A DNA stretch of 43,764 bases from Candidatus Heimdallarchaeota archaeon (GTDB taxonomy: Archaea; Asgardarchaeota; Heimdallarchaeia; JABLTI01). Below are positions 394-5,016 of this stretch, piece after piece. Position numbers and translations under genes: made by a program. The DNA lies in assembly GCA_019058275.1 (NCBI GenBank), contig JAHLVW010000079.1, positions 1-43,764 on the forward strand, given 5' to 3'. The notes under the pieces were generated by a model. The model made no database searches. It worked only from the letters and a program-made list of their open reading frames with translations, and was not told the origin of the DNA. Numbering within the stretch: the first letter of the stretch is position 1; each line of letters opens with the position of its first letter.

Positions 394-1227
394 GTGCCAA
401 AAGTTAACATAGAAATTTCTCCACTAACTTTTGCTAAAATCATTGATTGGAGTTCTTCAAATACAGAAAGAGAAATAGGTGGTTATCTTATCGGTTTGGT
501 TTCTGAGAATAAAGTAACTATCACTGATGCTATTTTTGCTACTGCACAATCAAATCCCACATTTGTATCTTTTGATAATATGATTCAATTTAAAATAATT
601 AAGGAATTAGAGAAGAAAGGTAGCAGTGAGACTATTCTTGGTTGGTTTCACACCCATCCAGGTATGGGTTGTTTTCTTTCTGGAACTGACATAGCTACTC
701 AGAAGGTTTATCAAGCGTTGCTTCCAGAAGCTGTTGCTATGGTTAATGATGGTAACCTTTTTGCTCAATCAAGAAATCAAAAAGATTTCAAAGCTCATTT
801 CTATCGTGTTGGTAAAGAAAATAAGTATAATGAAGTAAGTTTCGGTGTGATTACAGATCCTAATGAACTTCTTGATTTGCTAACTGATTTTGTACAAGCT
901 GAGGAGAGTGTAGAAAATATTGTTACAAGTACTGTTCAGCATATGTCAATGAATGTAAAGGATTTTATTGAAGTTATAGCTGAAGACAAATTGGTAGCCA
1001 AAAAGGCATTTGATAATGAATCTACATTGATTAAGAAAGCAATTGCTCAAACAAGGAAAGATATTGAATCTAAACATAACACTTTAGAAAAGCAATTGAA
1101 AGATGATTCATTAAAGCTAAAGAAGAATTCACGCATTTTTAGTTTAGTAACGATAATTTCGCTTGTATTTTCATTGTTAAGTTTGGCTGGTATAATTACA
1201 CTGATTATTCTGAACTACCTTCCTTAA
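394..1227 (+). CDS. JAMM/MPN+ metallo-isopeptidase (Rpn11/CSN5-like) with C-terminal coiled coil and transmembrane tail
   Basis: N-terminal E(IGGYLIG) plus GWFHTHPGMGCFLSGTD gives the complete E..HxH(x7)SxxD JAMM motif. The C-terminus IFSLVTIISLVFSLLSLAGIITLIIL is hydrophobic. Confidence 0.9.
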   Translation: MPKVNIEISPLTFAKIIDWSSSNTEREIGGYLIGLVSENKVTITDAIFATAQSNPTFVSFDNMIQFKIIKELEKKGSSETILGWFHTHPGMGCFLSGTDIATQKVYQALLPEAVAMVNDGNLFAQSRNQKDFKAHFYRVGKENKYNEVSFGVITDPNELLDLLTDFVQAEESVENIVTSTVQHMSMNVKDFIEVIAEDKLVAKKAFDNESTLIKKAIAQTRKDIESKHNTLEKQLKDDSLKLKKNSRIFSLVTIISLVFSLLSLAGIITLIILNYLP

Positions 1228-1244
1228 TTCATCAGTCTTTCATT

Positions 1245-2023
1245 CTAATCTTCCCAATAGATCATTAATTCATGTTCTTCTGGATCGGTATACCCTAATT
1301 TTAGAGCTAAACCTACTGAGGGTTTATTTGCTGCATCCCATCTAGGATCATAATCATTTTCTAAACTATATTCAATTAGATGAGCACACATCACTGTTGC
1401 TAATCCTTTTCTACGATGATCTGGATGAATTTCAACATCTAATTCAAAGGCATTTTCATAAAGAAGACCACCATTTGTTACATCTGCAATTATCTTACCA
1501 TCACTTATAGCACAATAGCCAAACCCATGTTTTTTGAAATATTCCAGTGAACCAACATAACGAATAATTTTCTTCTTTGTTTTTTCTTCAAACTTTTCAA
1601 TTATTTCATCATTGATTTTTACTATTTCATAACTATCAGGAATATTTCTTTTCAGCTTTCTGATATGTTCGATATCTAAATTAGTTGAAGAGAATTTAGT
1701 TCTTGGTTTTGATTTTAATTTATCTCCAAATTGCTCATTAACTAATGCTTTCCATTTATCATTTGGACAGATAAAACCTGATTTATTTGGTATTTTTGAT
1801 AGTAGTTTCTTAGCAGTTTCTCCTTCACCTAAACCACCAAAAACATTTATGTTGGTCTTTCTCCAAACATTAACATCGCATTTTTAGGATTATTTAAATC
1901 ATCAACAAATACTTTTCCTAAATCACTTACAAGCAATCCCAAAGCAATTGCTTCCAAATACTTATGTTCCTTGAATAAGGGGAGAAGTTCATCTCTTTTA
2001 TCCTGTGGATATTCGTATATCAT
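1245..2023 (-). pseudogene. GNAT-family acetyltransferase interrupted by a single frameshift near 1860-1870
   Basis: Manual translation: ATG 2023 MIYEYPQDKRDELLPLFKEH...NPKNAMLMF, then a shifted frame WRKTNINVFGGLG...HGFGYCAISDGKII...FELDVEIHPDHRRKGLATVMCAHLIEYSLENDYDPRWDAANKPSVGLALKLGY to TAG at 1245. Acetyl-CoA motif HRRKGLA is present. Absent from the ORF track. Confidence 0.85.
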
Positions 2024-2172
2024 CTTGAAAATAACTCCATTTATTAAGAAATAAAAATAATAAAAGTAAATTATGATTACTCTGTGATAATAATAGAAAA
2101 AATTACCTCTTAATTGCTTAAAAGGAAAGCTATTTGAAGGATTTCTGATGAAAGATATTTGAGGTAAGTGCT

Positions 2173-3020: not shown

Positions 3021-4169
3021 TTGTATATGAATAATAGTGGGTCTACTGTTGGTGATTCTAAAGTGAAAGAGGAAAAACCTTCCAAAACAACTACAAATAG
3101 AAAAATTGACCATCTCGAAATTTGTTGTGATGATAACTATGATGTTGAAATGTCTAAAAGTACTGGATTTGAAGACATTCTATTCGTTCATAAAGCTGCT
3201 CCAGAAATAAATTTCGATGAAATAACATTAGATACTCAGTTCTTGAAACACAAATTTAACTTTCCAATTTTCATTTCACCAATAACTGGTGGTGCAAAAG
3301 AGGGAAAGAAAATCAATAAAATGCTTGGAAAAATAGCAGAAGAATACTCAATTGGAATTGGGGTCGGCAGTCAACGAGCAGCTCTAGAAGATAGCTCTCT
3401 AGAAAGTACTTTCAAGGTTGTCCGAGAGAACGCCCCAACGGCTTTTGTAGCAGCAAACCTTGGTGCAATTCAACTCAATAATGATTATGGTTTAGAAGAA
3501 GTAAACAATGCTATAGAGATGATTTCTGCAAACGCTCTTGTTCTTCACCTAAATCCATTGCAAGAAATTATCCAACCAGAGGGAGAAACAAATTTCCGCA
3601 ACTTGATTCCTAAAATTGCTAAAATGAGCAAAGAACTCAAACAACCCGTAATAGTAAAGGAAATCGGTTCAGGAATTGCTCTTGAAGAAGCAAATAAGCT
3701 AGTAAGAGCTAATGTTGCAGCTATTGACATCGCCGGAGCAGGGGGGACAAGTTGGTCAAAGGTTGAAGCCATACGTGCAAATCAACAAGGTTATGATGTG
3801 AATAGTCGAGTAGGAGAGTTATTTGGTAATTGGGGAATACCTACTGCTTACAGTACATTAGAAGTTAGTCTACTGAAAGATAAAATCGAAATCATTTCAT
3901 CTGGTGGAATACGTAACGGTTTGCAAGCTGCAAAAGCATTAGCAATTGGAGCAAAGTTAGTAGGCATAGCTCTACCAATAGTTCGATTAAGCTATACCTC
4001 AACAGAAAAACAATTAGTTAATTACATAGAACAGTTTATACAAGAATTGAAAACAACAATGTTTCTAGTCGGAGCTAAAAATCTAGATGAATTAAAACAG
4101 GTGCCTTTAGCTTTTGTTGGTAAAATTGCTCAATGGTTAACAGCAAGAGGTTTCAATTTACAAGAATAA
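3021..4169 (+). CDS. fni: Type 2 (FMN-dependent) isopentenyl-diphosphate delta-isomerase
   Basis: Motifs RKIDHL, ITGG, GVGSQRAAL, HLNPLQE.IQPEG, KEIGSG, AGAGGTSW, WGIPT, SGGIR. The true start may be the ATG at 3027. Confidence 0.97.
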   Translation: MYMNNSGSTVGDSKVKEEKPSKTTTNRKIDHLEICCDDNYDVEMSKSTGFEDILFVHKAAPEINFDEITLDTQFLKHKFNFPIFISPITGGAKEGKKINKMLGKIAEEYSIGIGVGSQRAALEDSSLESTFKVVRENAPTAFVAANLGAIQLNNDYGLEEVNNAIEMISANALVLHLNPLQEIIQPEGETNFRNLIPKIAKMSKELKQPVIVKEIGSGIALEEANKLVRANVAAIDIAGAGGTSWSKVEAIRANQQGYDVNSRVGELFGNWGIPTAYSTLEVSLLKDKIEIISSGGIRNGLQAAKALAIGAKLVGIALPIVRLSYTSTEKQLVNYIEQFIQELKTTMFLVGAKNLDELKQVPLAFVGKIAQWLTARGFNLQE

Positions 4170-4185
4170 AATATTCGAGGTTAAA

Positions 4186-5016
4186 ATGATGAGTATATTT
4201 CCAGAGGATGACTCTCCAATAAAAGAAGATTTGGAACCACTAATTCAGACACTCGAAAATGATCCAGATTGGAATAAGCGTTTTGGATCTGCTAGTAAAT
4301 TATTTAGATTAGGGAGAGAGAAAGCAGTAGATCCTTTGATAAAAGCATTGCAGAATGACAAACATAAAGAAATACGAAGATTTGCAGCAAATCTTCTTGG
4401 AAGGTTGGGTGATCCAAGAGCAACTTGGGCACTTATTGCTACATTAAGACAAGCATTAATTGAAAAAGATGCTACCATAACACACCAAGCAAGTAAATCA
4501 CTATTGCTTATTGGTGGAAGCGATTTACCTTCGATTTTAGCAAGTACGATTGATGATCATGAAGAATTTTTTGAAATGAGAGCTAAAGCAATTGAACTAC
4601 TAGGTAAAATTGGTGATTCAAAAAGTGTTGAATATCTCATAAAAGCGATTAATAATCCTGATACAGATGGAAAACTACGTGGAAGAGCAATAAAAGAGCT
4701 AGTTAATACCGGGCATCTTGCAGGTTTACAATTGATTCTTGATTTACTTGAAATATCTTCAAACAAAGCTTTTCAGAAGATTGTAGTTAGTTCACTAAGA
4801 AAAACACCATTCAAAAACAGAACAATAATTTTTCGAATTGGAGACTCACTATTAAAAATCTTGGAGCATGAAGAAAGTAAAAGAAAGGATAAAGATGAAG
4901 AACTCTCTAAACTAGTTGCAAATGCTTTAAAGCAATTTTCAGACAACATCAATCTTGAATTTAAAGCATTTCTTGATGAGATAATTGTTATTCGTAAGAA
5001 ACAAAAAGGAAAATAG
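4186..5016 (+). CDS. HEAT/PBS-lyase repeat protein
   Basis: Repeats RRFAANLLGRLGDPRA and RAKAIELLGKIGDSKSVEYL; starts 16 bp after the fni stop. Confidence 0.88.
   Translation: MMSIFPEDDSPIKEDLEPLIQTLENDPDWNKRFGSASKLFRLGREKAVDPLIKALQNDKHKEIRRFAANLLGRLGDPRATWALIATLRQALIEKDATITHQASKSLLLIGGSDLPSILASTIDDHEEFFEMRAKAIELLGKIGDSKSVEYLIKAINNPDTDGKLRGRAIKELVNTGHLAGLQLILDLLEISSNKAFQKIVVSSLRKTPFKNRTIIFRIGDSLLKILEHEESKRKDKDEELSKLVANALKQFSDNINLEFKAFLDEIIVIRKKQKGK

Follow-up and report, generated by a model that had tools for sequence, protein, structure and literature searches.

A predicted tail-anchored JAMM protease of the CsRpn11 type in Asgard archaea, with two recombining front-end alleles

The closest solved relative of the protein described here is CsRpn11 of Caldiarchaeum subterraneum, an experimentally tested deubiquitinase that can do without its C-terminal helices (PMC6043591). 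CsRpn11 is a soluble protein of 202 residues encoded beside a ubiquitin operon (PMC6043591, PMC5654768), and its structures are available (PDB 6FJU, 6FJV, 6FNN and 6FNO). The CsRpn11 study clustered JAMM proteins after trimming all sequence outside the JAMM core (PMC6043591, PMC5654768), so that an anchor appended to the core would have been invisible to it. We ruled out a transmembrane (TM) segment in CsRpn11 itself, given its length and a paper that makes no mention of a membrane (PMC6043591). Tail anchoring is known for the endoplasmic reticulum deubiquitinase USP19 (10.1101/2020.10.05.326363), and in papers on Asgard ESCRT the ubiquitination of membrane proteins has been inferred from gene clusters and binding (PMC9192718; 10.1101/2023.07.25.550441). 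The literature searched, with subscription papers and supplements outside its scope, held no description of an Asgard or archaeal membrane JAMM, and none of the papers searched described an integral-membrane JAMM enzyme of any kind. A search of the ESM Atlas returned only leads below 0.9.

The window, that is, the whole stretch of 43,764 nt analysed here, contains a gene for a 277-residue protein in which an MPN+/JAMM domain is followed by a helical stalk and a predicted membrane anchor (Table 1). The motif H86-x-H88-x7-S96-x2-D99 is intact in the translation and is preceded by E27, and these residues are invariant among homologues, which bears out the Rpn11-like active site claimed in the first-pass annotation. 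The protein has both the glutamate plus HxHx7Sx2D and the MPN fold of MPN+/JAMM metalloproteases. It scores 69 bits against Pfam JAB (cut-off 22.5), and its AlphaFold2 model (pLDDT 82.8, with low confidence at residues 171–201) comprises an MPN fold at residues 5–152, a helix at 156–171 and a single long helix at 173–275. The top Foldseek matches to the model are 6FJU and 6FNN (target TM-score 0.84–0.91), then 6FNO, and against solved chains the sequence E-values are 1.3e-27 for CsRpn11, 3e-16 for human Rpn11, 1e-11 for AMSH-LP and 3e-11 for CSN5. In an ungapped alignment to CsRpn11 (6FJV), Ins-1 is present and Ins-2 absent; chain comparison, Pfam and the model likewise revealed neither the MIT domain nor the Ins-2 that characterize AMSH. 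The haloarchaeal desampylase profile JAMM1 (NF041370) gives 24.2 bits against a cut-off of 130, which places the protein outside that family. A single contig from the probable source run spans positions 1–1534 of the window with zero differences, so the fusion of JAMM domain and TM helix is not an assembly chimera.

Table 1 Features of the locus (positions in the window)
Feature	Position	Strand	Basis or remark
Predicted tail-anchored Rpn11-like JAMM open reading frame (allele A)	394..1227	+	GTG start, 277 aa
MPN+/JAMM domain, residues 5–152	406..849	+	Pfam JAB and Foldseek
Catalytic Glu27	472..474	+	Invariant in 62 homologues; aligned with CsRpn11
Dimorphic segment, diagnostic residues 28–85, spanning Ins-1 and the following helix	475..648	+	Allele alignments
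Zinc motif H86, H88, S96, D99	649..690	+	Sequence and homologue conservation
Helical stalk, residues 156–247, with a basic stretch at its end	859..1134	+	AlphaFold2, charge pattern
Predicted C-terminal TM anchor, uncharged 248–277, core 254–272, almost no outer tail	1135..1224	+	Hydropathy and charge
882-bp stretch, window haplotype only	1227..2108	−	Joint 1226 to 2109 in three runs

The membrane anchor was assigned from hydropathy and charge. Kyte–Doolittle hydropathy in a 19-residue window reaches its maximum of 2.7 at residues 254–272 and stays at or below 0.85 in the windows sampled before residue 241, so there is no signal peptide; residues 248–277, preceded by a basic stretch, are all uncharged. 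By these measures the protein has the single C-terminal TM segment, the lack of a signal peptide and the short outer tail of tail-anchored proteins, in agreement with the hydrophobic C-terminal helix reported earlier. A similar hydropathy rule picks out as tail-anchored 25 of the 2,220 open reading frames of at least 200 residues in the genome (about 1.1%). The anchor goes beyond what chance would give, for a TM helix is found in 61 of 62 near-full-length homologues, the sole exception being a record labelled partial, and 95% of 64 sequences end in an uncharged run of 22–32 residues preceded by net positive charge. The intervening stretch had been described as charged and helical or coiled-coil. 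The modelled long helix and a 3.6-residue periodicity uphold the helical part, with its basic end, but the periodicity analysis gave no clear sign of a canonical heptad coiled coil.

The architecture survey that the first-pass annotation had proposed was carried out by searching 400 genomes of the phylum with a profile and then translating selected loci. A JAMM domain with a C-terminal TM helix and intact sites occurs in 62 genomes from 15 families of Asgard archaea, the prokaryotes most closely related to eukaryotes, with Heimdallarchaeum aukensis, Heimdallarchaeum endolithica, Odinarchaeum yellowstonii and Baldrarchaeia among the named carriers. All JAMM proteins examined in ten other families (one to three genomes each) lack the TM helix; these families include Loki-like and, probably, Hod-like (Hodarchaeales) ones. 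In Odinarchaeum (a closed genome, 98%) and in a second genome, G055, the anchored protein is the sole JAB match, and both genomes encode ubiquitin. Relatives in family f17 (L067:1612-2505 and L080:1547-2455) carry another C-terminal domain of about 130 residues in place of stalk and TM. Close homologues are deposited as Ca. Heimdallarchaeota or Asgard group, and one of their records bears the prefix JABLTI01, which we take to denote the order Gerdarchaeales. One record with the depositor label Bathyarchaeia (L005) carries the gene of the window's family with its synteny and matches a genome of the same genus; it is probably mislabelled.

A representative search recovered a second group of TM-bearing JAMM proteins outside Asgard archaea, with either a C-terminal TM helix or an internal one plus further domains. 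In Bathyarchaeia-type operons (L085:5256-8764, L086:2493-6678, L089:2843-7117, L098 and L099), such a gene lies beside ubiquitin, E2, a ubiquitin-fused E1 and a membrane zinc-ribbon/B-box gene in which no RING match was seen; the operon is a candidate for a compact ubiquitin system at the membrane. Its JAMM and E1 have named relatives among prokaryotes, all of them from Bathyarchaeia except for one with an implausible Eubacterium label. These JAMM proteins form their own clade (100/98), apart from the Asgard anchored group in the best tree, and joining the two is not rejected by the AU test (p = 0.35). The JAMM–TM layout is therefore not exclusive to Asgard archaea. The first-pass annotation had held that its reading would fail if the architecture were common in non-Asgard archaea, and its occurrence in these operons goes part of the way towards that.

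In a careful tree of 151 columns, the 40 anchored sequences from Asgard archaea fall together with one further TM protein and three derivatives that lack a TM, though with weak support (51/71). The Rpn11 and CSN5 sequences make up a strongly supported clade (100/99), which in the best tree groups with soluble Asgard JAMMs (70/94). The anchored JAMM lies outside this clade, and all three JAB matches in its genome have intact sites, unlike a lid pair of the Rpn11/CSN5 kind. A sister relationship of the anchored group to the eukaryotic enzymes is not rejected (AU test, p = 0.33); the trees do not show descent of a eukaryotic enzyme from the anchored JAMM. A quick tree grouped the anchored JAMM with a soluble Aigarchaeota enzyme (84 SH-aLRT), a grouping absent from the careful tree.

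The host is a Heimdallarchaeia genome of 4.1 Mb (92.8% complete, 6.8% contaminated) with a complete ubiquitin system, in keeping with the Asgard origin suggested earlier. It encodes ubiquitin ending in GG, three E2-like proteins, E1-like genes, two Snf7 proteins and 14 RING matches, and so shares the eukaryote-type ubiquitin, E1, E2 and RING that accompany CsRpn11-like enzymes. TM helices occur in 11 of the 13 parsed RING proteins (G000; L204-L217), one of which has 1,005 residues and a large region between two TMs. Get3/ArsA and EMC3/Get1-like genes are also encoded, and are common in other archaea as well. In several Asgard ubiquitins the GG is followed by a short extension; the ubiquitin of the window's genus is encoded with GG at its end. 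A second JAMM of the genome (L003:850-1854, minus strand) is soluble and intact, with a β-rich C-terminal domain (a weak TRAP_beta match) and an adjacent small GTPase-like gene.

None of the 65 tail-anchored JAMM loci (mean 5.5 kb) has ubiquitin, E1, E2, RING or Snf7 nearby, in contrast to many soluble Asgard JAMM loci and to the ubiquitin operon beside CsRpn11. No ubiquitin or ESCRT gene was found in the window, and neither conserved functional neighbours nor a recurring proteasome or AAA gene among the neighbours of the anchored JAMM. Two HEAT-repeat genes (window:2173-2901 and 4186-5016) flank a type-2 IDI-like gene upstream of an L7Ae ribosomal cluster, and this synteny is kept across the genus. 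Elsewhere, two conserved genes of about 400 and 260 residues without Pfam match (L090:5968-7985 and L092:4575-6566) recur near the anchored JAMM and the AdoMet synthase gene in Odin, in Baldr and in further families. A conserved group of soluble Asgard JAMMs has an E2-like sequence just upstream or fused (L100, L101, L106, L125-L128, L162 and L178), often near RING and E1-like genes.

The 5′ part of the gene exists in two forms. Among 65 distinct family sequences at residues 28–85, 32 are of type A (that of the window), 29 of type B and 4 mixed; about 20 columns tell the types apart, and columns 57, 60, 62 and 84 fall in the predicted ubiquitin interface. Pairs that are 96–99% identical over residues 121–277 reach only 41–47% over 35–85. 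At the DNA level the divergence extends from the start codon to about codon 95: L220 (A) and L008 (B) are 98–100% identical from codon 101 and 57–78% before it, and over 1.5 kb upstream L220 matches L222 (B) at 95%. Traced on a tree built from residue 100 onwards, the allele type switches 17 times, near the mean of 20.6 obtained by shuffling; well-supported branches force 13 of these switches, and a single clade of allele A is rejected (p = 4e-38).

Both forms are present in the material sequenced. Contig C64 of the same assembly has the B allele, and its sequence meets that of the window again at 2109, which makes this copy an alternative haplotype; both haplotypes occur in the source runs at depths of about 6 and 9, and in another run B lies on a 108-kb contig. 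The stretch specific to the window haplotype includes a frameshifted GNAT-acetyltransferase-like remnant (window:1245-2194, minus strand), identified by eye and not by profile. On C64 (L182, G000:C64), a 29-codon remnant of the JAMM 5′ end (414-592) is followed by a 2.6-kb insert of unrelated genes and a full B allele (3201-4124), a layout that, from its sequence, looks like integration by recombination at the 5′ end of the JAMM gene. We considered whether A and B are two paralogues in each genome. Against this, eight of nine relatives with a full-length match (plus a tail-less second match) hold one copy each, and C64 rejoins the window; collapse of near-identical paralogues in fragmented assemblies may nevertheless mimic alleles. 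Co-variation with ubiquitin was also ruled out, as ubiquitin stays 91–100% identical. This polymorphism beside a barely varying ubiquitin points to a further selective partner. The pattern suggests a balanced polymorphism, probably maintained by balancing selection, that homologous recombination spreads through crossovers close to the zinc motif; under this proposal A and B would be two functional forms of the region that positions the substrate, both retained through recombination.

A predicted complex of residues 1–172 with the genome's own ubiquitin scored 0.88, against 0.00 for the best of three controls; the pass mark was attained by 58 of 80 solved pairs and by 2 of 110 mismatched ones, and the existing structure of a similar complex, 6FNN, may account for the pass. 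The runs agree in at least 98% of contacts, with a partner pLDDT of at least 93. The predicted interface joins E27, H86, H88, residues 96–99 and Ins-1 residues 56–60 to ubiquitin 69–77 and places the ubiquitin tail in the active site. From sequence and models, we consider it fairly probable that the protein is a deubiquitinase that faces the cytosol and opposes the membrane RING ligases of the genome. It would act as a CsRpn11/Rpn11-type zinc isopeptidase held at the cytoplasmic membrane face, inserted post-translationally, possibly via the Get3/ArsA and EMC3/Get1-like proteins, with the stalk holding the catalytic head off the bilayer. Ins-1 would pair with the ubiquitin tail, and the zinc-bound water would cut after Gly77. 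Ubiquitin would thereby be stripped from its conjugates, most probably membrane proteins to which TM-RING ligases had attached it, leading to rescue or ubiquitin recycling. Deconjugation is the expected job because the encoded ubiquitin of this genus already ends in GG; in lineages with extended precursors and no other JAMM, the anchored enzyme may also mature ubiquitin. The substrate class rests on co-occurrence in genomes, since no ubiquitin-system gene lies near any Asgard anchored locus, and the soluble L003 enzyme could instead be the deubiquitinating enzyme of this genome.

Three other explanations compete with a membrane deubiquitinase opposing RING ligases. The tie to the Asgard ubiquitin–ESCRT system drawn in the first-pass annotation would make the protein an AMSH-like enzyme that strips ubiquitin from cargo during ESCRT-III sorting, its anchor replacing adaptor recruitment. 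The genome does encode Snf7 proteins and ubiquitin, and coupling of the two systems in Asgard archaea has been published (PMC9192718; 10.1101/2023.07.25.550441), but the 65 loci without a Snf7 or ubiquitin-system neighbour, the missing MIT and Ins-2, the absence of the anchored form from the Loki-like families tested, and E-values of 1e-11 for AMSH chains against 1e-27 for CsRpn11 make this unlikely. Host, intact site, conserved anchor and ubiquitin system have stood; the ESCRT part of the earlier reading is not supported. A housekeeping recycler or maturase of ubiquitin, parked by its anchor at a membrane-associated unfoldase or proteasome and not at membrane cargo, would fit the finding of this protein as the only JAB match in Odinarchaeum and G055, and would suit the extended ubiquitins and the loose grouping with the soluble Aigarchaeota enzyme; we hold it to be quite improbable, as ubiquitin in the window's genus needs no maturation, yet the anchor is kept, and no proteasome or AAA gene recurs nearby.

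It is least to be expected that the protein acts on another modifier of the SAMP/Urm1 type, or that its hydrophobic end is a bundle helix. Rpn11 and CSN5 do end in bundle helices, and a desampylase profile matches weakly. That match, however, lies far below its cut-off, CsRpn11 leaves SAMP precursors uncut (PMC6043591), and the C-terminus stays uncharged for 22–32 residues despite wide sequence divergence, which renders both variants highly improbable.

If membrane deubiquitination is indeed its role, a predicted membrane-wired enzyme in 15 families, and the sole JAMM found in Odinarchaeum, would offer a direct handle on membrane-protein ubiquitination in Asgard archaea, within a scope limited by its seeming absence from the Loki-like and, probably, Hod-like genomes tested. 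In a core enzyme with a modifier that hardly varies, the two-allele front end would be an unusual case of trans-species polymorphism. A bolder and on balance doubtful extension is a membrane ubiquitin circuit of TM-RING writers and an anchored JAMM eraser in most Asgard lineages, predating eukaryotes, with long-term balancing selection on two functionally different, recombination-swapped front-end alleles that possibly evade viral or mobile-element antagonists.

A comparison with known systems places the protein closest to CsRpn11, to which it aligns without gaps over residues 5–144, with the same fold, catalytic set and insertion pattern; unlike CsRpn11, it adds a stalk of about 90 residues and a predicted TM anchor, and its gene stands alone. 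It resembles eukaryotic Rpn11/PSMD14 and CSN5 in motif context and fold, whereas those enzymes work as soluble subunits within PCI complexes, each with an inactive MPN protein as its partner. With AMSH/STAMBP, a deubiquitinase working at membranes, it shares the JAMM domain, but AMSH is recruited by adaptors and has the MIT and Ins-2 that the window protein lacks. USP19 offers a likeness of topology only, predicted for the window protein, in that a cytosolic catalytic domain is joined to a C-terminal anchor; its catalytic domain is a USP cysteine protease of unrelated fold. By these tests the protein is, as judged from its sequence, a JAMM of the CsRpn11 type and not a lid Rpn11, an AMSH or a desampylase, and what is new is that its 5′ end of about 90 codons, including Ins-1, comes as two deep alleles that, on sequence comparison, have recombined onto near-identical backbones in at least 13 switches.
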